Shown here: piece by piece, positions 12,394-48,789 of the stretch
How the letters are laid out: every line of letters begins with the position of its first letter
Numbering within the stretch: the stretch's first letter is position 1
Assembly (NCBI GenBank): GCA_001724265.1
Contig: MEDY01000142.1
Coordinates: 1-63,747 of the forward strand
Reading direction: 5' to 3'
DNA: 63,747 nt
Source: Rhizaria sp. SCN 62-66
Taxonomy: Eukaryota
Translations under genes and position numbers: made by a program
Notes under the pieces: generated by a model
Told to the model about the DNA's origin: nothing
Databases searched by the model: none
What the model saw: only the letters and a program-made list of their open reading frames with translations

Positions 12394-13521
12394 CGCGGCG
12401 GGCGGAGAAAACAACGCGGCGAGGGCCGGACAAGCAGAGAGTGGGGCGGGTCTTGTGGAGACGAAGAGAGAGCGAGAGAGCGCCGTGTTTGGGCGAGGCT
12501 GGGGCTCTGGCAGGAAATGGAAGAAATGGAAGCAAGGGAGAGAGTGAAAGAGCGGTTCGTAAGGTTAGTAACGTCGGAATGCTGACACGAAAGAAGTTAA
12601 TGATACAATAGCACATTATATCAAAAGAAGCTACAAGAACAGCCAACAAAGTCAGAGATTTGCGATAGAATCGAGAGAGATGTGGATGCATCGAGAAGCT
12701 TCAAAAGACAAGGCAAGGGGGATGTTCTCTGGAAGCATAGAGCTACAAGAAGCACAGTTTTCCAAAAGTTAAAGAGGCCAGCAGATATATGATTATACCG
12801 AAGCTCTAAAATAATCATCACACACATAGATGTGTTCATGGCCGTGCAGAAAACAGCGATGTTGTGGGTGTCATCACCTTCACCATCCGTTACCAGAGCG
12901 GTTGTACTTTGCCAGAATTGTCGTACATAAAGCGCACTTCAAAGAATGTCAAAGAAAGAGTGTTACAAAAACAACAGGAAGTTTTCCGAAAACACAAATG
13001 CAGAGCCATTGACGGTCACGCACTGGCTGTACAACATCCTTTCTGAGCGTTTGCCCTAATCATACTCACCCGGTTCGCGAAAACTGCACTTTGGCTTTCA
13101 CAATGATGAGCACGCTGTTCCCAGGTGATGTTTTTATGTTACACAAGTAATGTCTTGCTGTATTTCAATATGTGAGCGCTATAAATAGTATTATATTGCA
13201 TGTCACATATGTTATTTCTACGTATAACAGTGGATACCATCTTGGCGAGACACAGAAGCACCACTTTGAGTGAGATGCAGAGATCCTGAGCCACGAGGTG
13301 GTATTTCATCTATTGTCTCATGTACATCGAGCTCCTCGACAACAAAATTTCATCATCGTTTAATTTCATTAATGCACTATGTTGTGTTGCACCACAGGTC
13401 TTCGACTAAGCTAACAGTTCCTCTGTGTCGAACTTGAACCTCCACTGCGTACGTTAACCACCAACTTTCCCTCGACCCCGCGCGCGCCCGCCGCCCCGCC
13501 CGCCCCCGCACAGCCCCTCAT

Positions 13522-16500
13522 ATGTCTGCGCCCGGGCCGCAGCCGCGGCCGACGGCGCTGTCGGTCAAGGCGCACGCGGACGCCCGCGCGCGTCTGCGGC
13601 ACCTGACGGAGCCGTGGCCGGGCAGCAAGCTCGCGGGCGACCTGGACTAGGCGCTGCTGGCCCACGCCGCCGCCTCGGCGGATCTGCTGCCCGACGCCAC
13701 GCGCGCCAAACTCCTGCTCACGCTGCCTTACCTTGCGCGCGCGCTGCGCAACCTGCTGCGCGGCCCTATCGAGACGCTGCTGCGCCGCTGCGCCGCCGTC
13801 GACACTGCGGCGGCGACAACGCCAGCGGCGGCAGCGACGCCTGCGGCCGCCGCCACACACACAGATGCGGCGGCGACGGGCGCTGCCTCTGCTTCTGCGA
13901 CTGCTGCGGACGGGCTGTCGTTTACAACGCTGTTCGCGTCCGCGCTGGCTTCGTTTCCGGAGACCGGTGCGCTCGCAGCCCCCGCCTCCGCTCCTGCCTC
14001 TGCCCCTGCGTCTGCGTCTGCGGCTGCTGACGCAGACGGCGACACGACTGCGAGCGCGAGTGCTGCCGCTGCTGCTGCTGCGGCGGCGGCGCTGACGGAC
14101 GACCTGTTTGCCTCGCTGCTTGCCGCCGCGACCGGCGATGCCCCCCTTAGCGCAGACGCGGCCGCAGACGCCGCAGACGCCGCCGAGGCCTCGACCTCTG
14201 GCTCTGCCTCTGGCTCTGGTTTCAAGCGATCGCTGCTGCTGCTGCCGTCGGTGGCGGGCCCGCAGCAGCGGCTCGCGCTCTCGACCGCCCAGCGCAGCGC
14301 GCTTTATATCAACAACAACAGTAGTAGCAGCAACAGCAGCGCCACTGCAAGCAGCAGTGCACGTGTTGCGAGCAAGCAGGAGCTCGGCGTCGCCGCCGCG
14401 CCAGTGTCTGCCGCCACCGCTGCTGCTGGATCTAGTGCCACGCCCTCCGCGCCCCCCGCGCCCGCGGCAGCGCCCGCGCCGCCCCGCCAGGCGTTCCTTG
14501 TGTCGTCGGCGCCGCGGCTGGCCCCGCTGCCACCCGGCGCGGCCGCCGCGGCTGCCGCGCCCGCGCCGTCGCTGGCGGCGGCCTTCCAGCCCGCGCGGCA
14601 GACCGCGCTGCTGTCGGCGCACGAGAGCGCGGCGGCTGGGCTCGCGTCGGCCGCGCAGCTCCGCGCCGCCGCGGCCGCGCAGCGCCGGCGCGCGCGCGAG
14701 ACGGAGCGGCTCATCGCGCGGCAGCAGAAGGAGCAGCAGCGCGCCGCGCGCAAGGCCGTCAAGCGGGCCGCCGAGGAGGACAGGGCGCGTAAGCGGGCCG
14801 CCGCTGCCGGCGACGATGATGACGCCGGCGACAGCGACGACCAGTGGGGCACCGACGACGACGACAGCGACGACGACGACACCGACAGCAGCGGCAGCAG
14901 CAGCAGTAGTGGTAGCAGCAGCAGCAGCAGCAGCGACAGCGACAGCGACGACGACAGCGGCAAGAGCAGCTCCAGCTCGAGCTCCAGCAGCGGCGGCAAG
15001 CGCGGCGGTGCTGCTCGCAAGCCGCGGCGGACGAAGGAGCAGCGCGCCGCCGCCGCCGCCGCTAAGGCTGCCGCCAAGGCTGCGGCGCGGGAGGCCAAGG
15101 CGGCCGCGCGCGCCGCCGCCGCCGCGACCAAGGCGGCCGCGCGCGAGGCTGCGGCGGCGGCGCGCGCCGCGGCCAGGGTCGGGCGCGTGACTGTGGCCGC
15201 GGACAAGGCCGCCGCGAAGGAGGCCGCGGCGGCGGCGCGCGCGGAGGCCGCCGCGGCCAAGGCCACCAAGGCCCGGGAGCGGGACGCGGCGCGCGCGGCC
15301 AAGGCGCTGGCCAGGGAGAACGCTGCGCGCGCGAAGCAGGGACTGCCCCCGCTGGCCGCGCTGCCCCCCGTCGTGGTCGACGCCGACGCCGCCGCCGACA
15401 CCGCCGCTGCTGCCGCGACCGCTGCGTCTGCGACCACTGGGCAGGTGAAGCGTCCCGCCGAGGCTGGCGATGCCCCTGCCGCTGCCACTGTCGCTGCGAC
15501 CGCGGAGGACGGTCAGGAGGAGGGCCAGCAAGCGAAGCGCCCCCGCCCCGCCGCCGCCGCCGCCAGAGTCAAGCAGGAACCCGGCACCGCCGCTGCTGAC
15601 GCGGCCGCTGGCACTGCTGGCGACGTGAAGGAGCAGGACGTGCAGCTGCCCGCGCTCGCGCCCTTCGCCGCGGCCGCACCGCTGCCTTCTGGCGCTGCTG
15701 GCGCTGGCGCTGACGCGGGCTCGACCGCAGCGCCGGCGGCCGCGGGCGGGCCGTCGTCGGCCGTGCTCGCCGCGCTGGCGGCCAAGCGCGCCGCCGTCGC
15801 CGCGGCCCGCGAGCGCAAGCAGGCCGAGGCAGACGCCGCGGCCGCCGCTGCTGCCGGCAGCCTTGATGTCGGCGCCATTGCAGTCAAGGTCGAGGCGCAG
15901 CTCGAGGCCCTGCCCGCGGCCACCGTGGGCGCGGCCGCGGCGCCCGTTGCGATGACGGATGACAGCAGCAGCAACGGGGATGCTGGCGCGAAGGCTGGTT
16001 CGACTGACACATATGCGTACACTTACCAGCCTGCTTATAACAGCAACAGCAGTAGCAGCAGCAGCGGCTATGGCGGCTACGGCGGCGCGTACGCGCCCGT
16101 GCGCGCTATCTGCGACAGCGACAGCGACAGCGACGGCGACGACGCCGCCGCTGGCGCCACCCGGGCCGCTGCCGCGCCGCCGCAGGCGAGCGTCCGGGAC
16201 CGCCCCACGCCTGCCGTCGCCGCCGCAGTGCCGGCGGCTGTTGCTGCGGCCCCGGCGGCTGTCGCTGCGACACCGGCGGGTCTGAGCCCCCCCGCAGACT
16301 CCGCTGCCTCTGTCACCTCGACAGGCACAGACACGGACGGCGCTGGTGCTGCTGCTGCTAGCGCGGACGCTGCGGGGACTGGCGAGCTGGCGGCGCTGCT
16401 GCCGCCGCCGCTGCTGGCGTCGCCGTCGTTCGCGCAGGGCCAGGCGGCGCTGGCGCAGGTGGCTGCCGCGACGGGCCGCAACGCGCTGACGCCAGAGAGC

Positions 16501-23717: not shown

Positions 23718-25962
23718 TGACGATGAGGACCACCGCGAGGACGGCAAGTCCCGTCGCAGCGGCGGCGGCGGCGGGGTCGGCAAGGGCACGAAGCGCATGC
23801 CGCACTGGAAGCGCGACAGCGAGGCGCGCAAGGCCAAGCGCGCGGCGCGGGCGCGGCGGCACTCGGCTGAGCAGCTCACCACGCTTTCGGCCATGGCGCG
23901 CGCGCTCGCCGACATTATCACGGCGCTTATCCCCTCACTCGACTCTGACTGCCTGCTGCTGCTGCTGCGCGCCGTCGCGCCGCATCTCTCCTCGGCCGAC
24001 GCCAAGCTGCAGCGCAAGTCGTACCAGATCGTCGCGCACGTCATCGCCGCCGTGCAGCAGGCGCCCCTCGCGGCCGCGCAGCTCTCGGCCGACGCGGCCG
24101 CGCAAGGTGACAAATCCTTCGCGGCATTCTCGGCGCAGCGCAAGGCGGGCGCCGCGGCCCCCGCGCAGCTGAGCCCGCGCGAGGCGCGCACGCGCTTTGT
24201 GGCGCTGGCGTGGCAGCAGTGCATCAACGGCGTCATGACGGCCGCGGCCAACGTGCAGCCGCCCGCGGTGCGCGCGCGCCTCATCTCGGCGCGGCGCGTC
24301 TTCACCGCGATCCCGGATCTGCTGTCGCACCCGCAGGTGGGCGAGACGCTGCCCGTGCTGCTGGGCGAGGCCATCATCGCCTCGCGCGAGAGCAACACCA
24401 AGACGCGCGAGGCCGCCTTCGAGTTCGTCATGGGCGTCGCGCGTGTCATCATCGCCACCGAGGACTCGGCCGCCGCCGCCGCCGCCGCCGCGCCCGTTGA
24501 CATGGACGACGAGAGCAGCGCCGCCGCCGCCGCGCCGCAGCGCTCGCTGCTGACCGAGTTCATGTACATGATCCTCGCCGGCCTGGCGGCGTCGACGCCG
24601 CTGATGAAGTCGGCGACGGTGACGATGCTCGCGCGCCTGCTGTTCGAGTTCCGCGCCGTCTCGCACGAGCAGCACAACCGCGCTCAGACGGCGGGCGTGC
24701 CGCTGTCCCACACCTCGGGCTTCGCGTCGCCGGCCGTGCAGGCGCAGCTGCAGCCGCTCATCTCGGAGATCATGTCGACCGTGCTGGTGCTGCTCGCGTC
24801 GCGCTCCCGCGAGATCCTTAAGGCCGTGCTCGCCTTCGTGCGCGTGGCCGCCATGACGCTGGGCGCCGAGCACATGCAGCCGCAGCTGGCGGAGCTGCTG
24901 ACGCGCATCGCGCAGTGGGCGCCCGACGTCAAGTCGCGCTACAAGGGCAAGGTCCGCGTTATCTACTCGACGCTCATCAAGAAGTTGGGCATCGACGCCG
25001 TGCGCACGGCGACGCCCACCTCGGAGGCGCGCCTCATCGAGTACCTGCGCAAGGAGATGGACCGGCAGGCGCGCCGCAAGCTCGAAGCGGCGAAGCAGCG
25101 CCGCGCTGACAGCAAGGCGAGCAAGCGCGGCGCGGGCGCGGGCGACGACGACGAGGCCGACGACGACACGGGCAAGCTCGGCGCGGGCATGTCCTTCGAG
25201 GACTTCCTCGCCGGCGACGGCGGTGACGGCGACAGCGACGACGAGGACGGCGCGGGCTCATCCCGCGGGCTCTCTGCCGCGGCCGCGCTGGAGCGCAAGA
25301 TCGGCGCGGGCGGCAAGAAGGGCCCCGCGCGCAAGGGCACGCGCGCTGCCGACGACGCCGAGGACGGCATCTGGATCAGCGACGGCGCCGACCTGCTCGG
25401 CTCCGACGTCTACAAGCACGTCTCAAGCAAGCAGGCTGCGCGCCAGGGCGCCGCCGGTGCCGGCGCCGCGGGCGCTGCCGGCGCCGCGTCGGCCGAGGGC
25501 GCCGCAGGCTTCGCGGCCTTCAACAAGGAGGGCAAGTTCGACTACGCGGCCTACAAGAGCGAGCAGGACCGCGCTGCCAAGGCGCGCGCCGACGCCGCGC
25601 TGGCGGCGAAGCTGGCGGCGATGCCCAAGGCCGTCAAGCGCAACCACAAGGAGCTGGTCGAGGCGCGCAAGGTGCGCGACGAGGCCGCCTTCAAGGCCGC
25701 CAAGCCCACGGGCATCGGCAAGGAGTTCGCCTCGGCCAAGTCCGGTGGCGACGGCCGCAAGCGCGGGCAGAAGTACGACCCGTTCGCGTACGTGGCGCTG
25801 GACCCGCGCATGATGAACAAGCGCGCGAGCCAGCAGACGCAGGCCGCGCTCTTCAAGGACAGCTTCGACAAGTCGACCAAGAAGGCCGGCCAGAGCCTGC
25901 CCCGCGGCCAGCGCCTCAAGCGCAAGCGCGTCATGCTCGAGGGCGCCGCGCTCCGCAAGTAA
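20839..25962 (+). CDS. RRP12: RRP12 ribosome biogenesis HEAT-repeat protein (NUC173)
   Basis: PTSYFAAILSSL, DPRPKVRR, ALGPEFVLQTLPL, RAWLLPLL, QLWETLPAF, AKNFLPLLFNV, LQRKSYQI, GKEFASAKSGGDGRKRGQKYDPFAY. ATG at 20839, TAA stop. Confidence 0.92.
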
Positions 25963-26588
25963 GCGCGCGCGGGCTGTGCAGCGCGCTGTGCAACGGCGGT
26001 GAGCAGTTGCGTCATATGATGTCGGCAGCGGCAGTCGCGGCATGACGTGATTAGCTGAGCATGGTGGGTGTGTTTTTGTTGTTGTTGAGACCCACAAGAG
26101 AACTTGTTAGTATTAAGACAAGATAACACTCGGTATTAGAAGTATATATGAACGAGTGTTGTTTACATATATTATCTGCAAAATCGATCCACTATAGGCA
26201 TAGTAAAAGAAACAAAACACCATTGTGGTATTAATTGAAAGAGATTGAGGGATGACGATGATATCAGTATTACAATGCTAAAACAATAAACAAACAATTC
26301 ATCACACATAAGTCAGGTTTGATTTTGTATATAAAATTGAAAGTCATTTGTTCGTGATGTATTAATAAGCTTTAGGATAATATCGGTCGGTGCAGCGTGT
26401 GACCACCGTGGCCTTCACAGTCTCGCCCCCGGTGCCCACGGTCGAATTGTCACTTTCGCGCGCATCTCATAGGCTTACGTGCAGTAGCATCACAAAAGCA
26501 GGTGCAAATCACAACAGCAGCGGCCGCACGCGACAACACATGTCAAAGAGTGATCAGAGCAGCAACAAGGAAAGAATTCAACCAGTGC

Positions 26589-28734
26589 TCACTCGCCCTT
26601 GCTCTTCGTCACACTCCTGCCCTGCGACTGCTGCACCTGCTGGCCCTTGCGCTGCCGTAGCTCGCCCTGTTGCCCCGCGCCGGCGCCCGCAGCCTCAGCC
26701 TAAGCCGCAGCCACACTGACACTTGCCTTGCTCAGGGCCTTGTCTGCAGCCACGGCAGGAGATGCGCTCGCATTCGCGTCTGCGGCCGCGGCCGGCTTCG
26801 GCTTGGCGGCGCCCGGCAGCATAAAAACTGCCGCGCCGACAAAGACGCAGCAGGCGCCGGCCCAGTGCGCCGCCGTGAAGGGGCTGTCAAACACCAGCAC
26901 CGAGATGACCACCGACACAAACTTGCGCACCGTGATGGCCATCGTCGTCGCCGTCGCTGAGGACGCCGCGGTGAGCTGGTACACGCCCGACACGCAGAGA
27001 AACTGCGAGGACACGTTGAGGAGCAGCGCCAGCAGCGGCGACGCGCTCACGGTCACTGCCGCAGCGCCGCCGCCGCCGCCGCCCGCGGCCGCTACGGCAG
27101 GCGCGACGGTGACGGCGAGGGGCATGACCGCCTGAACCGTCGCTGCGGCGGCGGCGACAGGCGAGGCCCACAGCGTAGTGAGCCACGGGAGCGACGCCGA
27201 CGCAGCGGCGGCCGCGCCCGCAAGGGCGGCCAGGGGGCCGGCGGCGGCGGCGGACGCGGCCAGCGCAGCGGCGCAGGAGCCCTCCATGACGGTGGCCAGC
27301 GCACCGGTGTTGGCGCTCGCGGCGGCCGCAGCGGTCGCCACAGTCGCAGGGACTGCGGTAGCATAGCCGAGAGTGGAGAGCAGCGCGCCGCACGCGGTGG
27401 CGGCCCCCGCGGCCGTGGCTGTCGGCACAGCGACCGTGAGCGCCAGCGGGGCCAGCGGCGCCACGGCACCGGCCACCGCGCTGCCCACAGTCTCTGCAGC
27501 CGCACTGGCCACGCCCACGGTCGCGGTGCCCTCGGCTGCGGCCACGGCAGCGGCGGCAAAGTGCGCGTGCGCGTCGAGCCAGAGCGCGGCGTGGCGCGCG
27601 ATGGGCGCGGCAAAGAGCAGGAAGGCGGGCAGGTAGACGAGGTGCGAGTAGAGCAGCGATTCCGCGGAGGGCGGGCGGTGGCGGCGGGTGAAGTGCTGCT
27701 GCAGGTGGCCCAGGAAGGCCGACAGCAGCAGCGACACCACCAGCAGCGCGATGCCGACCGTGTACGCGTGACTGTTGCTGCTGGCGGCGGCGGCGTCGCT
27801 GGCACTGACGGCCGCTGTGGCGGTGGCACTGACTGTGGCATTGACGGCGCTGGCAACAGCGTCGGCGACCGCAGCCGCCGTGGGGGCGCCGACGCAGCCG
27901 GGGCACGATGGCAGCGGCACGCCCCCCGCCGCGGCCACAGCGGCAGCGGCGGCGGCGGCGCCCACACTGGCGGCGCGGGAGGCTGCGGTGTGCGCTGCGT
28001 CTGCGAGAGTGACAACGACGACGCCGACGGCGACGGCGACGCAGGCGAGCGACTGCGCCAGACTGTAGCGCTCGGTGAAGAAAAGGTAGCCCAGCAGCAG
28101 CGAGGCGGGGAGCGAGGATGAGCGGAACACAGTCTGCAGCGGCACCGAGATGCGGTAGTCAAAGACGACGTTGTTGATGATGGACTGGACGCCGAAGACG
28201 AGCGACAGCAGCGCATAGACGCCTAGCGGCATGCGGCGCGCGGGCAGCGACGGCAAGCCCAGGCGCGACCACAGCGACGGGGGCTGGAGCGGCGATGCAG
28301 TGACAGCAACGGCAGATGATGACTGCTGAGACCGTGCTTGCGACTGCGACTGCTGCGACTGAGATTGAGGCCAGATGAGCTGACCGAGGGCGGAGACAAT
28401 GATTACGGCAACAAACTGGAGCGCAGTCAACATGTGGCCGCAGCCAGGATCACGGCTGCACGCGGTAGAAGTGAGATAGAGAACGACATAGCGGGACATA
28501 GGAGAGTGAGCGATGATGATGATGATGGCAGAGGGGAGCGATATGCAAGACTCTGGATAGGGAGATACATACAGGCGTCACAGGAGATTAAACGTACCTG
28601 GTAATCATTTCAAGTGTCAAGACGTTAAGGCAGCATCCAACCATAATCTTGGTCACTGCAATGACGGCAGCAACGGTGTTTGTTGTGGTCGCCGGAGCTG
28701 CTGATGCAGCAGCCTTGGGTGCGGCGGACGACAT
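26589..28734 (-). CDS. SLC35B4/YEA4-like UDP-GlcNAc/UDP-xylose transporter; exons 28734-28598 and 28455-26589; in-frame TAG at 26700-26702
   Basis: Spliced join gives GCCLNVLTLEMITS|RDPGCGHMLTALQF. Further motifs NNVVFDYRISVPLQTVFRSSS, LLYSH, QFLCVSGVYQL, ITVRKFVSVVISV. Reading through the TAG ends at TGA 26589-26591 with ..TKSKGE, a KxKxx ER-retrieval motif. Confidence 0.85.
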
Positions 28735-29069: not shown

Positions 29070-29778
29070 ATGGCCACAACCGCCCCCGTGTCGTCCTCGC
29101 TCAAGTTCCTCCGCTTCGAGGTTTTCGGCAAGGTCCAGCGTACGTATACACAATTTATCAGCTAGATTACACAGTTTTTATTGGCACAGTTGCGTTTCAT
29201 CTACATATACATGAGTTTTGAACGGGTTGACTTCACTCCGAGCTTCCGTCTGTTTCCGTGATTGCCTCCACTCTCCACACTACCATTGGACATCTCAACT
29301 TTTGCGACGCAGGCGTTTTCTTCCGCAAGCACACGAAGGAGGCGGCGGACGCGCTGGGGCTTGTGGGTTGGTGCCAGAACACTGCAAAGGGCACCGTCAT
29401 CGGCGAGGCTCAGGGCAGCGACGCCAACATCGCCAACTTGTACGTAACACCGCATGCACCGTAGTATAAGAAGTGTTAATCAAATTGAGCCTGCATTTTC
29501 ACAAAGTTTAGTTGTTTTTATATTAAGCTACATGTGAAAATCAACTTGAAGCACCTGTATTGCTGATGATAAATATCATTACATATCTCACCCCCCTTAC
29601 ATTTGTCCCTCCATTTCACTACCCTGGCACTGTTCGCGCGCGCAGCAAGGTGTGGCTGGCAACCAAGGGCAGCCCGCAGAGCAAGATCGACCGGCTTGAG
29701 GTGCGCGCTGAGGGCGACCTGGCCGCGCTGACTTTCGAGGCGTTCGACGTCGACCGCACGAAGGCGGACAGGTTCTAA
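29070..29778 (+). CDS. ACYP: Acylphosphatase; exons 29070-29139, 29313-29439, 29646-29778
   Basis: Spliced product FEVFGKVQRVFFRKHT..LGLVGWCQNTAKGTVIGEAQG..FKVWLATKGSPQSKIDR. Both introns are GTACGT..CAG. TAA stop. Confidence 0.9.
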
Positions 29779-30143
29779 GCGCGATATCCATGGTCGCTCT
29801 TTCATCAAAGGAGACGTTCAATGATTAAACGGGAGTTTTATGAATCAAACCAAATTACTACATAGAAAGCAACGATTTTTTACGAACATTTTCTATGTGT
29901 ATCACATTGTTTCATTGCGTTATACCAGTCTGCAATTGCATTCTGAGAGTTTACTTCAAGTTGCTTGAGTTTTGTGACCAGCAACAAATCCTCTAGAACT
30001 GCGATGTCGTCATCGGGCGGTTTTAAAATGATTCCATTTTGTCAATTTCTGTTGTAAAACAACCGATCTTTGCATAGCGACGCAACTTTTCTCCTTGACT
30101 TTAGGAGACGATTGTCGTATTGTCGACTGTCAATTCAGTCAAG

Positions 30144-33100
30144 ATGAACGAGCTCCTTCTTGACATTGCTCCGCCTCCTCCGGCATTGATAACAGCTGCT
30201 GCTGCAACGATCCCTGCTCATCAACGCACGCTAACAACATCGCCCGCCTTAACGCCTACCCCGCGCCCTGCCTTTACTTCAGCATCGGCGTCTGCGTCAG
30301 CGTCAGCGTCTGCGTCCCGCGGCAGCCTGTCGCTGACAGTGCTGGTGGGCTCCGAGCCCTTCCCGCTGGCGCTGCCGCCAGGCGCCACGGTCGGCGCCGC
30401 TGCGCGCGCCGTGTGCGAGGAGTGGGAGCGCCGTTATCCCGAGTCCGCCATCGCGCTCAGCGCGCTTCACGTCCTTTCTGGGGCCGCGAGAGCAGCTGAC
30501 ACTGGCACTGGCGCTGGCACTGGCGCTGGCGCTATGGCTGTTGTGGGAGCTCATGGCACTGGAGCACTGGGGGCAAGGCATGGGCCAGGGCAGGGGCCAG
30601 GGGGATACCACGGGAGAGATAGGACGAAGGCCAGTCGTGCTACACCAGCAGTCACAACAACTGAGTTGCACCCAGACGATGTGCTCTATCACGTACGTTC
30701 GCCAATCTTACACGAGACTTGGTGTGATAGGCTCAACTTGAAGGAAACATATTTTTTCATGGATTTAATACTTTATTCTGCTCTTGCGTTGTTCAGTCGT
30801 TCATGTATTCTTTTTTTGTGTGAATTCCATGCACTCACGAACATCACGCGTAGGTCATCGCTGACGGCGCAGTGCTCAGAGCGACCTTGCACTCTCCATT
30901 CCACGCTCAGCAACAATAGCAGCAACAACAACAATATCAGCAACATCACCAAAGTCAGCACAGACCGCAGCTCCACGCCCCGTTGCCGGCGCAGCCGCCC
31001 GCCGCAGCGCCGTCGCAGTCTCCCGCCTTGTCGCAGCCGCCCGCACTGTCGCAGCCGCCGTGGCTGCGGCCGGGGGACGTGCTCCGCGGGCACCTGCTAC
31101 TCTCGTTGCTTGGCCGCGGCGCCTCGGGGGACGTCTTTGCCGCGCGCGACCTCACCTTGCACCGAGAGGTAGCGCTCAAAGTCCTCCGCCCGCCGCGCTG
31201 GCGCAAAGGCGTTGCTGTCGGTCATGCTGGAGCTGCTGCTGCTGGTGGTGGTGCGCAGGCTGCTGGTGCGCAGGCTGCTGGTGCGCAGGCTGCTGGTGCG
31301 CAGGCTGCTGGTGCGCAGGGTGCCCAGGCGCAAGCCGACTCGGGGGAGGATGAGGCGCGGCTCGTGCGGCGCTTCCTGCGCGAGGCGCGCGTAACCGCGC
31401 AGCTGTCGCCGTGCCCCTACATCGTCACCGTCCACGGCTTCGGCCGCGCGCGCTCCGGCGAGCTCTTCATGGCGCTCGAGCGCCTCCGCGGCCGCGCGCT
31501 CGACGAGTTGCTCGCAGAGCGCATTGACGCGGCGCGCCCCTTCGCGCCGCTGGAGCTGGTGTACCTCGCGCTGCCCGTGCTGAAAGGACTCGTACGTAGT
31601 TGCACTGCTCGATATTGTGATGTCAGGATATTGTGGTGTCTGGTTTTTGTGTTGAAAACTTTATCGTGTCTCATGTACTCATGCCATTGTTTTTCTTTTC
31701 TGCCGCGATTGATCCCGACCTCTCGCGTGCGCAGATGTGGGCGCACGGGTGCTCGCCGCCAGTCGTGCACCGCGACCTGAAGCCAGAGAACGTGTGGGTC
31801 AACGCCGTGGCAGACGACCGCGAGGGCCGCCTCATGCTGACCAAGATCATGGACTTCGGGATCGCGCTCACGCTGAGCCCGCCGCCGCAGGACCAGGACG
31901 AGCTGTTATTGCAGGGGCAGGCACAGGCGCCACAGCAACAGTCCCAGCAGCCACAGCAGCAGGTCAGCGATGGCTCTGGCTCTGGCTCTGGTTCTCGCAG
32001 TGGTAGTGGTAACAGCGGTCGTAATGGCAATGGCAGCGGCAGCGGCGGCGGCAGCGGTGGTGGCAGCGGCAGCGGCCCACGGTACCGACACCTGGTAGGT
32101 ACACGGGGTTACTGCGCGCCTGAGCAGGCATGGGCTCCGTATCTGCACGCAATGCAACAACAACAGCTATTGCAACAGCAACAACAACAGCAAGAACAGG
32201 CTGGGCGGTCTGTGTCTGTATCTGTGCCTGCGTCGGCGTCAGCCTCGGCACCCGTGGCCACCGTGGACGCACGCGCGGACCTGTGGAGCGTGGGCGCAGT
32301 GTTATTCCAGCTCGCAGCGCTGGCGGAGACGCTGCCGTTTGACTCGCTCGCGCTCGCCAGACAGCTCCACGAGTACAACAACTCGCAACGGAGCGCTGCG
32401 CCGGCCGGGTCTGGCATCGCGGGCTCCGGCGGCTCTGGGGTCGGCGCTGCCCGCCCTATCGGAACCGGGGGCGCGGCTGGCAGTGCGGGCGCTGGCGGCA
32501 CTGGGGGCGCGGCGAGGGGGGGTGGACTGCGGAGGCCGCAGGCGCCGTCCGTCGTGGACCACATGGCGGGACCGGTACGCACTTTGATATCTGAAGATAT
32601 GCGCAATTCTTATTTACTATAAGTTGAACTAAACATTTTTGGGGCATTTTTTTGACCAGAATGTTTGTTTTAGTTGTTGTGTTTTGTAATAGTGTAAGAA
32701 ACCTCTCCTCACTGTAACACCCTTTGCCTTGCCATTTCACAACCCATAGCTGCCCGCATCTCTGTGCAGTCTCATCGACTGCGCGCTTAGCGTTGACCGC
32801 GCGGGCCGCTTTCCCACCGCAGCCGCAATGGCGCACGCACTTGAGCGCATTGAAGCAGGTCCGTTTTGTCACACATGAGTAGTCACACAAACAGATGACG
32901 ATGATATGAAAAGTTTTAGTGAGATATGACTGAGCTGTATTGTAAGCTCTCAAACTTTAACAAGCAACGAGAAAACATAAAAAATATACGCGACACTCAC
33001 ATATGCGCTTGCTTATCATGTTTTGTGTTTCAACGCGTTTAGAGTTGCTATCAGATCCGGCGACTGCGGCCACGCGTCTTGACTTCGCTGCTATGGCACG

Positions 33101-33146
33101 GCCGCTACCGGAAGCAGATACGTTTTCGACTGAGGATAACAGCTGA
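30144..33146 (+). CDS. Ser/Thr protein kinase of bacterial PknB/Pkn2 type with an N-terminal ubiquitin-like domain; exons 30144-30692, 30854-31591, 31735-32574, 32750-32858, 33043-33146; in-frame TAG at 30917-30919
   Basis: LLGRGASGDVFAARDLTLHREVALKVL, RFLREARVTAQL, HRDLKPEN, KIMDFGIA, GTRGYCAPEQA, DARADLWSVG, RFPTAAAMAHAL. All four joins are GT-AG and frame-preserving. TGA stop. The last exon is the least certain. Confidence 0.85.
31250..31318 (+). repeat. 15-bp coding tandem repeat (GGTGCGCAGGCTGCT)x4.6 encoding GAQAA
   Basis: Directly visible perfect repeats between kinase subdomains II and III. Confidence 0.9.
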
Positions 33147-33830
33147 GATAATGATAGATAGCTTCACCATTGCGCTTTTTTTGCCTTCTAGGTTCTTTCT
33201 GAAGTCGCCACCGTTGCTGTCACCATTACTGGACCTTGTGTAACACAGAGCGACTGAAACAAATATAGGAGTTTAAGTTAATGAACAAAGTGTTCGCAGA
33301 TTGAACACAACTTTCAATACATAAAATACACTATTTAGCGTTATGGTGCAGTTTTAGACACAAATATAACGCTTTTAAGTCAGGAGATTCAAATATGTGA
33401 TTTTATGCTCGTGACTACGTCGCCCAGCTCGACGTGACGAGCTTACTCTGGGATCCATTTTTTTCATGACCTATTCACCTTCGCCTGATTCGTCATTCAC
33501 ATTATTGAAGATATAACGAATTAATTTGCACATGTTCAATGTTTTAATCAATTTAGCACCCCAGAGTAATGTCAAGACTGCAGTATATTTGCATTTTCCG
33601 TGTGCTCACCACATCTCGTTCCATCTCTCCTTGCGCGACTTTTCCGCGGACATTGCAGCCTCGAGGCAGCATTTGCTTCGTTAAAATAGCTTACCTTTCT
33701 TAAATATCAGGAACAATTCCACTTTACGGGCGAGTGAGACTTTGATTCGCTGTATCCCCACTCCGCTGTGAGGCTTGTCCCTCTTCTGTCCCCCTCCTTG
33801 CTCGCAGTTCGTACTGCCATCCCCAACAAC

Positions 33831-36777
33831 ATGCTGTCCTCTGAAATGTTTTACGACAGGTTCATTGACAACCTCACGATCTCGAACGCGACGTGTTTCT
33901 TTGCGAAGTTTGTGTCGATCCTGCTGGGTGGCATGACGTATGCGTGGCTCAACTGGCACGAGTCGCGAGTGATGCGCGCTCAGCCCAAGGGCGAGGCCCG
34001 CGCACTCATCCTCCCGCTCTTCCGCCCGCTCATGCTCTTCATCATCATCTTCATGATTCTCGAGAACACGGCTTTCTTCGTGCTGGTGACGTTCGAGATG
34101 AGCAACTGGTTCAACGTGCTGCAGTGGTCGATGTTCCAGATCCCGCGCGAGGGCGTGTGCATGATCTTCATCCAGCGCTCCCTCTCGCGCAACGCGCTGC
34201 GCCGCGCCTTTTATTGCGCGCTTCTCTGGTCACTCTACGGCTGCGTTATGGGCGTCGTGCTCAACGTCGTCCCACCTACGGACTTCAACTGGAACATCGT
34301 CGCCGCCGTGTACCACTTCATTCCCTCGCTCTTCCACGCCTACATGCTCCTCAGCAGCTACAACCGGAGTCTTCCTTTCTCCCCGCGCGAGTCCCTCATC
34401 CCCTTCAACGCGCTCATGCTGCCCGGTCACCTCATCTGGTGCGTCATCTATATCATCCTCGCGTGCGGCGTACTGGACACGTCCATCCCCTGGCTCTTCA
34501 TCTGCGCCGGCGTGCTCGAGCTGCCCATGATGCCCGTCTGGCTGCTGCTATTTCGCGCCGACACGCACTACTGGCAGTACGGCGGTATCTGGTCCTGGCT
34601 GCGCTCGCCCGAGTACTTCGCACTCGACGAGGACGACGGCGCTGACGACGAGCTCGACTCCGCCGCCGCCGTCGAGGGCGCGCTGCTCCAGTACGGCGGC
34701 GCCGACTCGGACGGCAGCGCCGCCGGCGCCAGCACCGGCGGCGCAGGGGCTAAGGGCGCGTTTGCGACCAACCGCAGTGGCGGCCGCGGCGGCGGCGGCG
34801 CGAGTCAAGCCCCGTTGATGCTCGACATCGACACCATGCATCCCTTCTGCCCGCGCGCGCGCGCCGCCGCGGCCGCGGCCGCCGCGGCCGCAGCGACCGC
34901 GGCGGCGGGCGCGCAGCATGGCAACGGCTATTATCTGCTGGACGAGGACCTGCCCTCACTGGCTGACGGGCCCGGCGGCGACATCGGCGTCTACGGCCAC
35001 GGCAGCGGCGGCGGGGGCGGCGGTGGCAGTAATGCCGGCAGCGTCGCCGGGTCCGCGCTGGGCGGGCGCGCGTCGCCGGTGCCCGGGACGGCGTCGGGCG
35101 CGGGCAAGAAGAAGCGCGACGTGCGCCGGCAGCTCTCTATCGGGCTGCTCGCCGACGCCAACGAGAGTATCATCCAGACTGGCATCCAGGTACGCTGCGC
35201 TTGCAGACACTTACTAATTGGCGCGTTTGAATTTATGTGTATATTTTTGATTAATGCGGAATAATTTTGTTGCCATATTTTCTAATTTTATATCTTGATT
35301 TTGTGCTTTTGCTCTGTTACTGTTCTTGTAGGACATGATCGAGGCGAACCGCAACCACATCATCCACTTTGGGCAGCTGGACATCGATGCTAACGCGCCC
35401 CTGGGCGTGGGCTCCTTCTCAAAGGTCTTCAAGGGCTACCTGGACAAGAAGCCTGTCGCGGCCAAGTTTTTCACGCGCTTCATGGACATCTACCCCGAGA
35501 TGATCGAGGCGTTCGCGAACGAGACGTCGCTGCACGTGGCGCTGCGCCACCGCAACATCGTGCGCTGCTACGGGCTCTGCGTGTGCCCGCCGGCGATCGC
35601 ACTCGTCAGCGAGTTTTGTGACCGCGGCTCGCTCATGGGGCTCATCGCCGAGCAGCGCGCGCGCGTCGACGCGCTCATCACTGTCGCGCTGCGCGCGCGC
35701 GCGCACATCGAGGCGCGCGCCCGTGGCAAGCCCGCGCTCAGGCTCTGCGCCAACGCGCCGGGCGGCGCGGGGGGCCTTGTGCACGCGCACAACAACACCA
35801 CCAATAGCAGTCTCAGCAGCGTCGGCGATGACGCGAGCAAGGGTTCTGCGTCGGCGACTGCGAGCTCGACTGTGATCGCTCTTGATACGAGTGTCGCGAA
35901 CAGCAGCAGCGGCAGTGCTAGCGGTAACGTGTGGACGCTGGTCGACGACGACATGACGTCGCCCAGACTGTCCCCCGGCTCCCCGTCGGTCTCAGTGGCC
36001 CTCGTCGCCGCGGACGGCGGCGGCACCGGCAACAGCAGCAGTCTCAACAGCAACACCGGCGCCCACGGCCTCAGCCACAGCTCCAGCTCCAGCGGCGGCA
36101 GCGGCAGCGGCAGCAAGTCTCACAGCAGCCGCGGCGGCAGCAGCAAGGGCGGCAAGGCGCGCCGCAGCAAGGACGGCCACGACGCCGACTCCGTGTCTCT
36201 CAACGCGCTCTCCGGCAGCGCTGCCGCTGATGCCCACGCTGACGCCGAGCGCGAGCAGCAGCAGCAGCAGGGCGGCGACAGTGGCGGCGACGGCGAGGGT
36301 GAGGGTGGCTGGTCCCTGACGCGCTCGCTGAGCAACCTCATCTCGAGCGGGATCGCCTCGCTGAGCGGCGGCAAGGACCGGGACGCCGACGCCGCGCCGG
36401 CCGAGGACGAGGAGACGGCTGCCGAGACCGCGGGCGCCGTGCCCGCCGCCGCGCTTGCGCTCTCGCTGACCGAGGAAGACCGCCGGCGCGCGACGCGCAG
36501 CGGCAAGGGCGGGCTCTCGGTTCAGGCGCAGGCGCAGGCGCAGGCGCTGGCCGCGCACACGCACGCGCTCAGCGCGGGTCTGGGGCCCGAGGCGGCGGCG
36601 GCCGCGGCAGCGGAGGCCACGGCCGCGGCGGCGTCGGCGGCGGCCGCGGCGGCCGCGGGCACGCGCGTTATGGGCAAGGTGGACCTGACCGCACCCAAGC
36701 GGCCGCTGCAGCAGCAGGAGGCCGTCATCATGAGCAGGCCCGGCGTGCGCAAGAACAAGCACAGTGCCACCCTCTCG

Positions 36778-36828
<51 letters not shown>

Positions 36829-39800
36829 ACGAATGGCAGTGCGGCTGGCCCCAGCGATGATGACGAGAAGGGCAACAACAGCAACAGCAACAGCAACGAC
36901 ACTGCTGCTGCCGCTGCCGCTGCTGCTGTGACCCGCCCCGCCAGTGTTAGCACCAGCAGCTCTGCCAGTGCCGCCGGCTCCACCACGAGCGCGAGCGCGA
37001 GTCCCAGCCACAGCAGCGGGAGCGCGGAGTCGCTGCGCGCGCGCCTGCCGCCGGTGACAGGCGTGAGCGACGTGCTGGAGCTGCTGGCAGCAGTGCTGTA
37101 CGCGCCCGCGGCCGGCGCGCAGGGCCACGCGTCGGCCGCGTACGCCGAGCGCGTCGTGCAGGCCTACTGCGCGCACGTGGGGCTGCCGCCACTGCCGCTG
37201 CCGCAGGGCTTCCTCTGGTCGCTGACCACACGTCTCCAGCTGTGCCTTGACGCGGCGCTGTCGATCGCGTTCCTGCACGCCAACAACGTCATCCACCGCG
37301 ACATCAAGTCGCCCAACTTCCTCGTCGCGCGCGACGCCGTCGGGCTGCGCACTGGCGCGGCCGCCGCGGCGCGCCTCGGGACGCCGCTGCCCAGCGCCGC
37401 CGCCGCCAAGCGCAGCTCGCGCGCGGCCGAGCCTCCCCTTTCGGCGGCGGCGGCGGCGGCGGCGGCGGCGGGCGTGTCGGCGGGGTCTCACGTGCACGAC
37501 CTGCTGCTGGGCGCCGCGACCACGCAGGTCGGCCACCGCATCAACGCGCTCGTGCCCTGTCTCTCCGAGCTCGATGCCAAGCAGCAGCACAGCAGCGTTG
37601 GGCACAGCGGCAGCCTGCTGTCGCCGTCGCCGTCGATGCTGCCGCCTTCCAGCTCTACCGCGAGCTCGCATGACAGCCACGGCAGCGACGTGTCCACGCC
37701 CTCGACTGCGCCCCACGGCTCCGACAGCGACCCCAGCAGCCCACGCTCGCTCTCAGGCTCCGGCTCAGGCTCCGGCTCCGGCTCCGGCTCATCCGGCTCT
37801 GGATCTGGCTCCAGCTCCAGCCTGTGCGCGGTGAAGCGCTGGCAGTGGACGCCACTGCCGCTGGTGGCGCCGCTGTCCGGCCTGCCGTACGCGCTGCCCG
37901 TGCCGGCCGTGCCCGCACTCTCGGTCGCGCCGTCGCCGTTCGTGTCCATCACGCGCGTCGCCACGGACCTACCCACGCTGCTGGCTGCCTCCGCCTCCGC
38001 CGCCGCCGCGGCCGCCGCGTCCGCCCTCACGGCGCCCGCGTCAGGGCCGTCGTCGCTCCCGCACTCGCAGTCGCTGCCGCAGGCGCAGTCGGTCTGTGAC
38101 GGCAGCAGCGGCTCGCTCGAGATCTCGCCCAGCGCCGCTGCGGCCGCAGTATCGACGACGATGGCGGCGCTTTCGCCATCCCCGTCGGGCGCTGTGCTCT
38201 ACTCGTCGCCCTCGGGGCTGCCCGGCTCGCTCTCGCGCTCGTCGCAGTCGGGCGCCTCGTCGCTCTCACAATCGCAGACGCTGCTGTCGTCGGCGTCGCT
38301 GGCCTCGCTCTCGGCGCTCGACTGCGCGCCCGCCGACCGCGCTGGCGCCGCCGCCCCCGGGCTGGCGATGCTCGTCCCGCCGCACGACAACGACGGCGCG
38401 CTCACGGTCAAGCTCGCCGACTTCGGGCTCGCGCGCGTCGTGCCCGGCGCCGCGCGCCCGCGCCCCGGCTCGGTCTCCAACCCCGCCGAAAGCCCCAGTG
38501 CCGGCCGCAAGCCAGCGATGCGCGGCTCGCGCTCCGTGACGAGTCTGCAGGCGCTCGCGGCGCCGCTGGCCGGCGACGACAGCGACACCGGCAGCGGAGG
38601 CTCAGCGGCGTCGTCCCCCTTCGCCTCGGTTTCCTCGGCTTTCGCGCCCACGCGCCCGCTCACGCCGCGCCTCGCGCGCGCCAACGCGCAGCAAAAGCCA
38701 CAGAAGCCGCAGTGCCGGCTGATGTCCTCCGCGCTGCTGGCGCCGACCGCGGCCGAAGTGGCCACGGTCTCGGCGGGCCTCCAGGACAAGGCCCTGCTGG
38801 CCGTGGCCAAGAAGCTCGAGGGCGCGCTTTCCGCCGGCGACACCGCCAGCGCTGTCAGCGCCGTTGCCGCGTACAACGGTGACGACGCTGCGGCGATCAA
38901 GGGCGGCGCCGGCCTTTTCGGCAGTAACCGCAGCGACCTTAGCGGCTTGAGCGCCGACAGTGCCGCGCACGCTGGTGCGGGAGCGTACCATGCGCCGTCG
39001 CTGGCCGGGCTGGGCCGCGCGGGCTCGGCCGATAGCGGCGACAGCGGACTCAGCGGGCTGAGCGCGCGCCGGACGACGGAGCCGGACCAGGACGGCGACT
39101 GCGAGCTGGGCCACAACAACGCCGTTGTCGCTGCGAAGAACGGCGCGACGCGCCGGCGCGACACGGCGACCTCGAGCGACTTCTCCGTCTCCGACACCGA
39201 CAACAGCCGCGGCGACCTGTACGAGGGCGACGAGGGCCGCCACCTGGCGGAGGCCAGCGCGGACCTGCAGCGCTCGCGCTCGCGGTCCACCGACCTCACC
39301 GGGCTCGGCCAGACCGGCGCCGCCGCCTCTGCTGCTGCGACGATAGTGGGCCGCAGTCAGATGTACCTGTCCAACGTGCGGCTGGACCGCGGCCGCAGCA
39401 ACACGACGCCTGGGACGAGCCGGAACTCGGGTGCGGGCGCCGCCACTGCCGGCGGCCCCGGCTCCCTGAGCGCTGCTGTCGTCATCCCCGGCTCCGCCCC
39501 GACCGCCGCGGCCGCCGACGTGCACTGGCGCTCTCTGACGCGCTCGCACCGCCCCACCTCGCTCTCGCTCTCCTCCGCCGCCGACGCGCAGTCGCAGAGC
39601 AGCGCCGACGCCGACGCGCAGGCGCCCGCGAGCGCCGCCGCGGCCGCGGCAGTGACTGCCGCGATCACCGCCGCGGCGACGATGAGCTCGACGGCCAACT
39701 TCCGCCAGACGCTGATGCGGCACCACACTGCGACGGCGCGCACGCAGCGCTCGCTGGCCGCCAGCATCAGCACCACGGGCTCCGCCACGGGCTCCGCCGC

Positions 39801-40221
39801 CGCGCGCCGCGCCGCTGCGGCCGCCGCCGCTGCGACGCTGGCGGCCACGGGCGGCATGACCACCGACGTGGGCACCTTCCTCTGGATGGCTCCCGAGGTA
39901 CGCTCCGGCGTCTACTCCTTCAGTGCGGACGTCTACTCGCTGGGCATCGTGCTGTGGGAGATCCTCGCCATGTCGGGCCCCACCGTGGCGGCCGCGGCGC
40001 CGCCGGGCGGGCGCGTGACGGCCGTGGACGACACCGAGCCCGTCTGGGCCGAGTCCTTCTGCGGACTCGTCCTGCCCTCCGAGTGCCCACAGGAGCTCCA
40101 GGACCTGGTGTGGGCCTGCGCCGAGAGAGACCCCGCGCTGCGCCCCACGGCCGCGCAGCTCGTCGTCGCGCTCCGGAAGACCATCGCGCAGGTCGCGGCG
40201 CAGGGCCTCGACGTCTTCTAA
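33831..40221 (+). CDS. Multi-pass (about 7 TM) membrane domain fused to a TKL-family protein kinase; exons 33831-35189 and 35332-40221
   Basis: About 7 hydrophobic segments in exon 1. Kinase motifs LGVGSFSKVFKG, VAAK, EFCDRGSL, HRDIKSPNFLV, VKLADFGLAR, GTFLWMAPE, ADVYSLGIVLWE, DPALRPTA. Phase-0 GTACGC..TAG intron. TAA stop. Start codon uncertain. Confidence 0.85.
36778..36825 (+). repeat. (AAC)16 coding microsatellite, poly-Asn
   Basis: Perfect AAC run inside a kinase insertion. Confidence 0.95.
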
Positions 40222-45913: not shown

Positions 45914-46725
45914 GACGCGGCCTGAGACGCAGAGAATAGCAGCGTACGAGCGTTGTGTTGCAAGAGTGTTGATTTAGCTTGTGAGACCAATCTACTACGG
46001 TGCTTAAGTCGGAGAGGACAGGAGATAAAAACGTGTTAGAGACAATTAAGAAGAGGCTTTCAATAAAACCACGCACACCATCGTAAACCAGAACGATATC
46101 CACACATGAAAACGTTTGATTGAGATATTCACGCTTTTGTTCTGAAACGCACAGCTACACTGCAAGAGGTAGAAGGCAGGTTTCTGATAATTGGTGCGCA
46201 GTAGAATGATCGTCAGAGTCTTTGCAAACTAATGATGATATGCATTCATACCCGGGACATAAACTGGTCTAATTATATCTCCCCCAAATACATGTCTATA
46301 TCTGGGGCGCGTCTCGTAGAAAGTAGGATGGTCAGCGCGAAGCTTCACAAACCCTCACCATTTCATTCTCTGGCTCCAGCTCACCAGAGGAGCTTTTGGA
46401 TACATTCGATTTACAATAAATACGCACATCATGCAGATTTAACAAATGCAGTTACGCTCTTCACGTATGAAAGGGTTCCTTGTTGCAGTCAAGCGCATCA
46501 GCCGAGTAGCCAAGGACGCGTCGCATCTCGTTACCAGCATCGCGTCCTCTACGTTGTTATGCTATATCTCATTAAAACATTTATCCCACAATGCTGCAAC
46601 ACACGGAACTACGTATAACGATGATTTGCTTATTATATCCTCGTATTTATACTAGGAAAGATACTTATAGTGCATATATGCATCGTTTCTTCACGACACA
46701 AGGTGCTTGTCGTGTGCGCCGCCTC

Positions 46726-48789
46726 ATGTCCGCAGTCACTCTCCACGAGCCCCCTGGCGCACTTCGCCCAAGTATCGACAGCAGCGGCAGCGACATAAGC
46801 GACGATGATGCCCTTGCGCGCGAGTCTGCGCGCGAGTCTCGCCGTCTGAACGCGCCGCTGACCGAGGCCGGGTTCGAGCTGTTCGCAGGGCTGCTGCAAG
46901 CATTGGTGGACAAGGACGAGGACGCGCTCAAGTCGCTACTGGAGAGCGCATTTCCGGACTCCGAGGACACTGACGACGATGTTGATAACGACAAGGAAAG
47001 CGACCGTGGCTGTAACGTCGATAGTGACTTCGCCAGTCGCAGCAATGTTGTCAGCAACAATCCTATCCAGAGGAACACAAGCTCTGCCATTCTCTCTCGC
47101 ACGGCAGAAACGGCTGCGGTGCTTTCTGCCTCTACCAAGCCGCTGGGCCGCTGCGCCACGCGCGTGTTGACCGCTTGCCTCGTGGTCGCGGCGCGGCTGC
47201 GGCTGACCGGCGCCGCAAGCCAGCTGGTCAAGTACGGCGCCTCGCTCTCCGCCTCTGTCACGGGGCTGTTCACACACGTTCACCGCTGCGCCAGCCAACG
47301 CTGCGCCAGCCACCGCTGCGCCAGCGCGGTTTGCTGCCGGGAGCGCTCACAACCGCACCAGCATCAGCCTAGCACAGGGCCCGGCGACTGTCGGCCGCTG
47401 TGGCGGTGCGGGCGGCGGGGGCCGGGACTGACTGCGCTGCACGCGGCGTTGCTGGCACACGACGTGGCGCTGGCGACAATGCTCGTGCAGCACGGCTCGG
47501 ACGCGCGCACGCCTATCGTGCATAACGCCGCGGTGAAGCGCGACGCAGAACACACAGACAATGATACTTGTGGTGGCGAGCGCTGTTGCGGCGACTGTAT
47601 GGGTGCGTGCGAGCGCCAGTGCCAGTGCGAATGCGGGTGTGAGTTGTGTGCTGTTTTGAATTGGAATGATTCTTTCAATAATAACCACATCATTACGAAT
47701 AATGATGACGACGTGAGCAGTAGCATTAGTTTCAGTGACAAAACGCGCATGTTGACAGCCAGCACTTATTGCAGCACGATTACAGGCAGCACAGTCCCGA
47801 CACTAGTGCTTGCAGCTTTGGTGCGTGCGCGCGTTGAGTACAGCTGGGACTGTGAACATACTTCCGGATTAAACCAGGGTGCTGGTGGCTTGTCGTTAGA
47901 TAGTGAAAGCGATGTTCTATTTCCATTTTATGCTCCGCTCTCAGGTACTTCCACAATCGCTCATCGCTACGGAGAGAACCCCTTCAGCACTTATAGTTAT
48001 ACCTCCAAGGCCACCATTATCTCCCCAGCAACTATTATCAGCAACAATAACAAAAACATCAAGACAAACGAGACTGCAACCTGTGACGAGGATGGAAGCG
48101 GTGATGATCACAACGGCTCCAATCAGGTCGACGAAGACGGGAGTGATGACGAAGACTATTACCTTGACGAGGGCAGTAACGCTGGCAGCAATGGGGGCCA
48201 TAGTGACGACAGCGAAAGCAGCGATGCCGACGCAGACACCGAGTCCGACCCGGTTTCCCCGCCACTGCTGTCCCCGCTGCTGCTCGCTATCGCGCACCGC
48301 GCGTAGCACCGCGCCTCGGCCGCGCACCTGCTGCATTGGGCCGCGCGCGAGGACGACGCCGAGCTCATCGCGGAGCTGCTGGCCGGCGCGCGCGGCCGCT
48401 GGCGCAGGCACGGCGAGAGCGTGCGCAGACGCAGGCGGCTGCTGCGGATCAAGCTCAAGCGACATGCTACACGGCAGCAAAAACAATCACTGACCCATAA
48501 TCGCGAGGTTGATGATGACGCGTCTCTGGCAAGCGACTCTAGAGACGGCTTAGGTCTTCGTCACGCGGCTCGACCGGGGTACTCGCTCAACGAGGACGGC
48601 GGCACCGCACTGCACGCGGCGGCCGCGGCGGGCGCAGTGGCCGCGATCACCGCGCTGTGCATGGGCATGGGCGGCCGGCGGGGCCAGGGCAAGCGGGTGT
48701 CGTTTGCGGCGGCGGACTACTGGCGCGAGAGTGCCAAGAGGAAGGCTAATGTGACGGCAAAGGCCGTTAACAACGCGAACCCGGAGTGA
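46726..48789 (+). CDS. Ankyrin-repeat protein with Cys-rich and acidic inserts; in-frame TAG at 48304-48306
   Basis: ANK motifs GLTALHAALLAHDVALATMLVQHGSD before the TAG, and LLHWAAREDDAELIAELL and GGTALHAAAAAGAVAAITAL after it in the same frame. TGA at 48787-48789. Confidence 0.65.

Follow-up and report, generated by a model that had tools for sequence, protein, structure and literature searches.

A very probable UAG sense codon, with glutamine as the leading candidate residue, in a eukaryotic contig that uses UAA and UGA as terminators

A protein kinase gene that carries TAG in the middle of a run of glutamine codons poses a simple question: is the gene broken, is the codon spliced out, or is UAG read as an amino acid and, if so, as which one? 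The gene in question lies in a 63.7-kb stretch of eukaryotic DNA that was analyzed as a whole and is referred to below as the window. A previous sequence-only reading had noted the TAG among CAA and CAG codons, and had taken it as the most direct clue that UAG means glutamine.

The window comprises GC-rich coding regions with AT-richer spacers between them (GC 0.48-0.77 per 2-kb interval across the stretch), and most of its genes have a GC3 of 0.8-0.95. Introns are few; the six that were measured are 143-206 nt long with a GC of 0.35-0.45, and introns start with GTACGT or GTACGC and end with YAG. A Pfam search, for which the input was 150 of the 152 standard ORFs of at least 150 aa, found START, CYFIP, LigB, CFAP97, MCM, RRP12, and UAA-family transporter genes, together with two protein kinases and dyskerin, ankyrin, DHHC, and SpoU-like genes. 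Scans of the window returned no tRNA gene and no Rfam match. The idea that protein P0003 is NELF-A-like gained no support, as phmmer against PDB gave only four low-complexity rows (E at least 0.65); its first 120 residues gave two weak matches to representatives. The same DNA is present in contigs from bioreactor and wastewater metagenome runs.

The kinase gene is on the plus strand. Exon 1 (30144..30692) begins with the ATG at 30144, encodes a low-complexity N-terminus and a possible β-grasp/ubiquitin-like domain, and ends in ELHPDDVLYH at 30692, with GTACGT directly after. Intron 1 (30693..30853), which we infer from sequence only, runs from GTACGT to TAG, with G as the next base after 30853; it would be 161 nt long, with a GC of 0.39. 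Exon 2 (30854..31591) would then supply the end of the N-terminal domain, the Q-rich linker that contains the TAG, and the kinase N-lobe, with its Gly loop (LGRGASGDV), VALK, and an insert of five 15-nt repeats. A second predicted intron (31592..31734; GTACGT...CAG) leads to exon 3 (31735..32574), where HRDLKPEN, DFG, and APE-type motifs follow in frame amid large low-complexity inserts; as in the earlier reading, the kinase motifs lie downstream of the TAG. Putative exons 4 and 5 (32750-32858 and 33043-33143), placed by GT..AG boundaries, reading frame, and composition, would bring the gene model to a TGA terminator at 33144-33146. The exon 3 piece matched Pkinase (PF00069) at 38.7 bits, above the gathering score of 31.7, and the exon 2 piece reached 24.7 bits (E 1.8e-5), which for that piece is below the gathering score. 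Taken with the Gly loop, VAxK, HRDxKxxN, and DFG, the profile match identifies the predicted product as a eukaryotic protein kinase. The domain at its N-terminus is less clear. A ubiquitin-like motif had been proposed across the first splice; atlas scores of 0.76-0.83 to β-grasp families (Par3 N-term, PB1, CIDE-N, TDP-43_N, and Ubiquitin_GT-1), which are weak leads only, lean that way, but a Pfam search with E values of up to 1 allowed returned no family for exon 1 and the start of exon 2.

Read directly, positions 30902-30943 are CAC GCT CAG CAA CAA TAG CAG CAA CAA CAA CAA TAT CAG CAA. The in-frame TAG at 30917-30919, within a CAA/CAG run of exon 2, is therefore as described, although the interval proposed for the run, 30902..30945, ends in the middle of a codon. 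The TAG is codon 22 of exon 2 (30917 minus 30854 is 63, hence in frame), and translation from 30854 gives VIADGAVLRATLHSPFHAQQQ, the TAG, and QQQQQYQQ, with LGRGASGDVF and VALKVL further along without a change of frame. No ATG occurs in frame from the TAG to the catalytic Lys of VALK, and the first Met comes only past that residue, which agrees with the earlier observation that no ATG precedes the Gly-rich loop. The TAG also falls within an 18-nt tandem unit (TRF; 30911..30960, plus strand, 2.8 copies), the copies of which read CAA CAA TAG CAG CAA CAA, CAA CAA TAT CAG CAA CAT, and CAC CAA AGT CAG CAC AGA. The codon-usage scores of its two flanks are negative (-16.6 and -20.8), because both flanks are CAA-rich and of low complexity. 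By itself, this site cannot tell a sense TAG from chance. We regard it as more than chance because of the structure of the gene around it and because of four further in-frame TAGs in the window.

Could the kinase TAG be absent from the mRNA? An intron that extended from 30693 to 30919, with TAG/CAG as its acceptor, would remove an additional 66 nt, or 22 codons, and keep the reading frame. TAG is a common acceptor in the window (at 30853, 35331, and 43512, and at 53218 on the minus strand), and such an intron is compatible with the contigs from runs X3-X6, which show no spliced form. However, the 66 nt have a GC of 0.58, as opposed to 0.35-0.45 in the six measured introns, the stretch that precedes them is A-rich rather than pyrimidine-rich, and the resulting intron, at 227 nt, would exceed the 143-206 nt of the others. 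It would also cost the protein VIADGAVLRATL, which is plausibly the last strand of the N-terminal domain, and it gives no account of the other four TAGs. We therefore consider the longer intron very unlikely, and in what follows take the kinase mRNA to be joined at 30692/30854.

The second in-frame TAG (13648..13650, plus strand) is codon 43 of a 1092-codon gene that runs from the ATG at 13522 to a TGA after 16797. It is preceded by 42 codons and followed by 1049 codons with a strong coding signal, and the next Met occurs ~790 codons past the TAG. The third (26702-26700, minus strand) is near the end of the gene for the UAA-family nucleotide-sugar transporter and looks at first like its stop codon, the only such TAG, but 36 in-frame codons with a GC3 of ~0.86 follow it before a TGA, at which the GC drops as it does past other terminators. 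The fourth (48304..48306, plus strand) is codon 577 of an ankyrin-repeat protein (ORF 46576-48786), where it links a 576-codon ORF to a 160-codon ORF, with weak Ank Pfam matches on either side. The notion that this TAG occupies the Gly of an ankyrin "GH" motif was rejected, since the next repeat is at the wrong distance. The fifth (52740-52738, minus strand) is in a conserved block of the DHHC palmitoyltransferase gene, between TTAEYLK and AFPLGAPHSRGCCRNWLRTLC, with 300 further codons to a TAA. After two clear introns the frame reads GVTTAEYLK, TAG, AFPLGAPHSRGCCRNWLRTLCFPPS, and both flanks, without a change of frame, can be aligned to ZDHHC5 (E 0.23, the query being 42 residues long) and to three homologues from the database; a search with exon B for close orthologues gave only three matches, 41%-53% identical. 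Splicing could not remove this TAG, because conserved sequence would go with it. All but one of the five TAGs are in poorly conserved sequence. Altogether, the 25 annotated CDS segments comprise 15,283 codons, and five of these are in-frame TAGs (0.33 per 1000), of which four fall in the 7,810 codons with GC3 <0.9 and one in the 7,473 above, a difference that is not significant as a sign of weak codon bias.

We also scanned the window with TAG, TAA, and TGA treated alike and with 30-codon flanks. Eight sites passed, including the TAGs at 13648 and 48304, while the TAG at 30917 failed. The remaining six were rejected on inspection: the TAG at 29462 is inside an intron, that at 43510 is an acceptor or in a leader, the TGA at 48787 is the real terminator of the ankyrin gene, the TGA at 50996 (minus strand) is antisense to an acidic tail, and two weak minus-strand TAGs are opposite plus-strand genes. 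No credible in-frame TAA or TGA emerged from the scan. The absence of TAA and TGA within the annotated codons is true by construction, given that the segments are delimited by those codons.

The use of terminators points in the same direction. Nineteen gene ends, several of which were set by the end of the ORF and the drop in GC only, without homology, comprise nine TAA, ten TGA, and no TAG; if TAG made up 20%-30% of stops, the probability of finding none among 19 would be 0.001-0.014. TAA ends the genes for CYFIP, RRP12, dyskerin, the second kinase, LigB, and others, and past it the GC drops and more stops follow. UAA and UGA are thus retained as terminators. Because TAA clearly terminates, the change would concern UAG only and is not a UAR code.

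The same counts bear on the idea that UAG is leaky, being read in certain contexts by near-cognate tRNAs (those for Gln, Tyr, or Lys) and still terminating elsewhere. TAG is indeed very rare in the coding sequence of the window, and readthrough by near-cognate tRNA-Gln is described in the abstract of PMC13192750. Three of the five in-frame TAGs precede GC, as do 10 of the 19 real terminators; however, GCN makes up 20% of codons, so that three of five is not significant (p ~0.06). Were UAG still a terminator, it would have been expected at some of the 19 gene ends, and if the DHHC enzyme and the kinase relied on readthrough at a low level, most of each product would be cut short. Leaky termination is accordingly improbable in our estimation, and a genuine sense UAG remains the preferred reading.

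It is more improbable still that the kinase gene is decaying and its TAG a nonsense mutation, or that the TAG is an error of assembly or sequencing. The kinase gene does differ from its neighbors in having a GC3 of 0.59-0.75, where theirs is at least 0.9, and in its higher use of CAA, and one transition is enough to turn CAG into TAG. Against this, the kinase motifs, the frames, and the four introns are all intact, and decay or error would have to have broken five of the ~20 genes, each by TAG alone and without a frameshift. The contigs of other runs add to the case. One from run X3, which belongs to another study, is identical over 13300-14654, including the TAG at 13648, and another X3 contig is identical over 25296-27807, including the TAG at 26700-26702. 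At the kinase, an X4 contig from a slightly different strain is colinear with the window over 30505-31278, with no gaps and six differences, and none of the five differences that are listed falls at 30917-30919.

This X4 contig must derive from DNA or from unspliced RNA, because it is colinear across intron 1. A contig from the X6 poly(A) RNA library (31320-31841) likewise spans intron 2 unspliced, and X6 coverage ends at 26706, just before the transporter TAG. Among the contigs of runs X3-X6 there were no spliced forms, and no joint matched any intron. The kinase splice, and with it the presence of the TAG in the mRNA, is a prediction from the genomic sequence.

Based on these observations, we think it highly probable that UAG is a sense codon in the nuclear genes of this organism. 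UAG would be decoded as an amino acid, and UAA and UGA would still terminate. The kinase gene would then be intact, with an mRNA joined at 30692/30854 and read through the TAG in a Q-rich linker that would connect a small N-terminal domain to the kinase domain. Such decoding would presumably involve a cognate tRNA with the anticodon CUA and a release factor that no longer recognizes UAG efficiently. The residue inserted at the TAG would most likely be glutamine.

Which amino acid is inserted is a separate matter, for which the poly-Q context of the kinase TAG makes glutamine plausible. Among the proteins of the window, at least five of the six neighbors are Gln for 53 of 582 Gln residues (9.1%), and for only 2 of 1359 Leu, 1 of 578 Glu, 1 of 1378 Ser, 1 of 266 Tyr, and 1 of 1105 Gly. 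Such a context, which is also that of one in-frame TAG among the five, is thus about 20-100 times as characteristic of Gln as of these other residues; this likelihood ratio is naive, as it takes no account of the fact that a single transition turns CAG into TAG irrespective of how TAG is decoded. Poly-Q linkers, moreover, tolerate change. Glutamine is also the commonest published meaning of a reassigned UAG in the overviews given in PMC5304391 and PMC11687900.

Other evidence weighs against reading the poly-Q run as direct proof. In the 18-nt repeat, the first copy has TAG where the second has TAT (Tyr) and the third AGT (Ser). A count of TAG versus TAA within CAR runs had been proposed as a genome-wide check; within the window, the 52 positions with at least three CAR codons on each side include three TAGs and no TAA. 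Two of those three TAGs are untranslated or out of frame, that at 2331 being in the 5′ leader of CYFIP, where no ATG precedes it, and that at 16053 being out of frame in a Ser run. The DHHC TAG, the only one in an alignable conserved block, is matched by Gly in four of four homologues. None of the TAGs is at a conserved Gln position, the other four sites having no alignable homologues. The repeat, the TAGs in CAR runs that are not translated in that frame, and the Gly-aligned site all count against the poly-Q run being the most direct clue to glutamine. What survives of the view that TAG behaves as a synonym of CAG and CAA is that TAG is sense, which its usage across the window supports; glutamine is a plausible candidate for its meaning.

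The repeat and the DHHC alignment also favor the possibility that UAG is sense and specifies another residue, be it Leu, Ser, Glu, Tyr, or one not yet described for this codon. A single Gly-aligned site is a weak test and proves little, and the poly-Q context speaks for Gln. Serine has a precedent in Scotinosphaera, for which UAG=Ser is reported in PMC11687900. Leucine has one in Rhizaria sp. exLh (Sainouroidea; PMC5304391), the sole published reassignment of UAG that we found in Rhizaria, and two single-gene analyses point to the cercozoan Mataza as the nearest named relative of the present organism. In exLh, however, UAG is frequent (384 in 71 genes), as opposed to five in 15,283 codons here. 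A code of the sainouroid type is further disfavored by base composition, as the one sequenced sainouroid genome, that of Rosculus, has 37.7% GC in Table 1 of PMC10770858, versus 0.48-0.77 in the window. On balance, a residue other than glutamine is a possibility that we entertain without favoring it. If UAG is sense, glutamine is moderately favored; whether UAG is both sense and glutamine is a point on which we are evenly divided.

The lineage of the source was approached through two conserved proteins. The nearest database relatives of the window's MCM6 are only ~50% identical, and BLASTP of MCM6 against P0004 gave no meaningful alignment, despite 758 HMMER bits. In an MCM6 tree of 44 rows, a split with an SH-aLRT of 98 separates eight rows (the window, six environmental proteins, and one long-branched locus) from 36, which include fungi, Nk52, Pygsuia, a ciliate, and a brown alga. 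One of the six environmental proteins, P0007, falls into the same 90% cluster as Mataza sp. D1. For dyskerin, a relative that is 85% identical (P0252, encoded on a 22-kb JGI contig) is placed on a 22-row side of the tree (SH-aLRT 98) on which Mataza is found again, with plants, green algae, fungi, and a cryptophyte on the opposite side. These placements suggest that the source is a cercozoan. A metagenome scan with RRP12 gave 596 pattern matches and no relatives, and one with MCM6 gave 80 loci, the best being 62% identical over a part, none of them from this organism. An aphelid origin was considered and dropped, because neither MCM6 nor dyskerin falls with fungi or Nk52, and also because Amoeboaphelidium is cited as reading UAR as Gln in PMC5304391 and PMC11687900.

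How does this putative code compare with those already described? Codes in which UAR is Gln (NCBI table 6 type) resemble it in that a stop codon has been turned into what may be Gln, but differ in that TAA terminates here, at nine of the 19 gene ends. A closer likeness is found in the fornicate Iotanema spirale, for which the account in PMC5304391 gives UAG as Gln, and UAA and UGA as stops: only UAG is reassigned, UAA is a frequent terminator, and glutamine is the leading candidate here. Iotanema is, however, an unrelated metamonad, and the meaning of its UAG was derived from many hyperconserved positions, as opposed to five sites here, none of them at a conserved Gln. In exLh, again as presented in PMC5304391, UAG is Leu and the terminators are UAA (56) and UGA (15). 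The two cases would share a UAG-only reassignment with both other terminators kept, and the organisms possibly belong to the same supergroup, given that two gene trees have Mataza as the named organism nearest to the window; but UAG in exLh occurs at conserved Leu positions, whereas here it is rare and one instance is in poly-Q. Reassignment of UAG only is also tabulated in PMC11687900 for ciliates (to Gln or Leu in phyllopharyngeans, and to Gln in Protocruzia), which, like Scotinosphaera, have UAG uncoupled from UAA. The window is unlike a ciliate in its GC3 of ~0.9, its spliceosomal introns of 143-206 nt, and the grouping of its MCM6 and dyskerin elsewhere.

In the main texts of the literature covered, we found no such code reported in Cercozoa except that of exLh. 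We tentatively raise the possibility, which we would not rate as the expected outcome, that the window comes from an uncultured, GC-rich, probably cercozoan protist of wastewater reactors with a UAG-only reassignment, independent of that in exLh, in which UAG specifies Gln or a residue new for this codon and is very rare (0.3 per 1000 codons). If so, codon capture could have been caught here at an early stage.

For annotation, gene calling with the standard code would truncate or split five of the ~20 genes on this contig, and metagenomic bins of the organism would therefore be mis-annotated. Cases in which UAG and UAA have different meanings are few in the survey provided by PMC11687900, namely Iotanema, exLh, Scotinosphaera, and some ciliates, and each new instance of such a split informs how stop codons get captured. 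A rare UAG, with UAA and UGA both in use as terminators, would be an informative intermediate state.

In the poly-Q kinase gene, the reading frame of exon 1 continues without a stop codon across the AT-rich inferred intron and then through a further 316 nt of exon 2 (30105-31169). A standard ORF finder therefore reports this interval as an ORF of 355 aa, which masks the inferred splice. Further downstream, the N-lobe of the kinase carries an insert encoded by five copies of a 15-nt unit with 98% matches (31249-31323). The product of the repeat is a series of (A/G)AQAAG units, flanked by the catalytic Lys on one side and helix C on the other.

A second kinase gene also appears to be interrupted. 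The ORF at 33738-35261 and the large kinase ORF at 35332-40218 look like a single intron-joined gene (33738-40218), with a putative intron running from GTACGC near 35190 to an acceptor TAG at 35331; the N-lobe of this kinase begins exactly at the acceptor. Another TAG, at 2331, lies within a CAA/CAG run (2319-2345) of the CYFIP 5′ leader. It shares the frame of the CYFIP ATG at 2370, and it has no ATG upstream.

The dinucleotide GC immediately follows 10 of the 19 terminators in the window (TAAGC or TGAGC; for example, at 7674 and 25960, and on the reverse strand at 40807 and 17192), and the genes concerned are mostly those of highest GC3, so that a preferred termination context is possible. 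GC likewise comes directly after three of the five in-frame TAGs, against a background in which GCN makes up 20% of codons.

Among the metagenomic loci matching the window's MCM6, L011 (GC 0.38, two HSPs) has all three stop codons in frame, with TGA six times, TAA five times, and TAG five times over the two aligned pieces. It may use a code lacking a dedicated stop, or else the alignment may be poor. Several further MCM6 loci (L004, L008, L027, L051, and others) show the ciliate-like combination of in-frame TAA and TAG. The homologue at L009:3-1337, which is 52% identical and lies in a locus with a GC of 0.59, contains three in-frame TAGs and no in-frame TAA or TGA. The residues of the window's MCM6 opposite these TAGs are Q, Q, and E. 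Since L009 does not fall near the window in the MCM6 tree, it may derive from another organism in which UAG is a sense codon.
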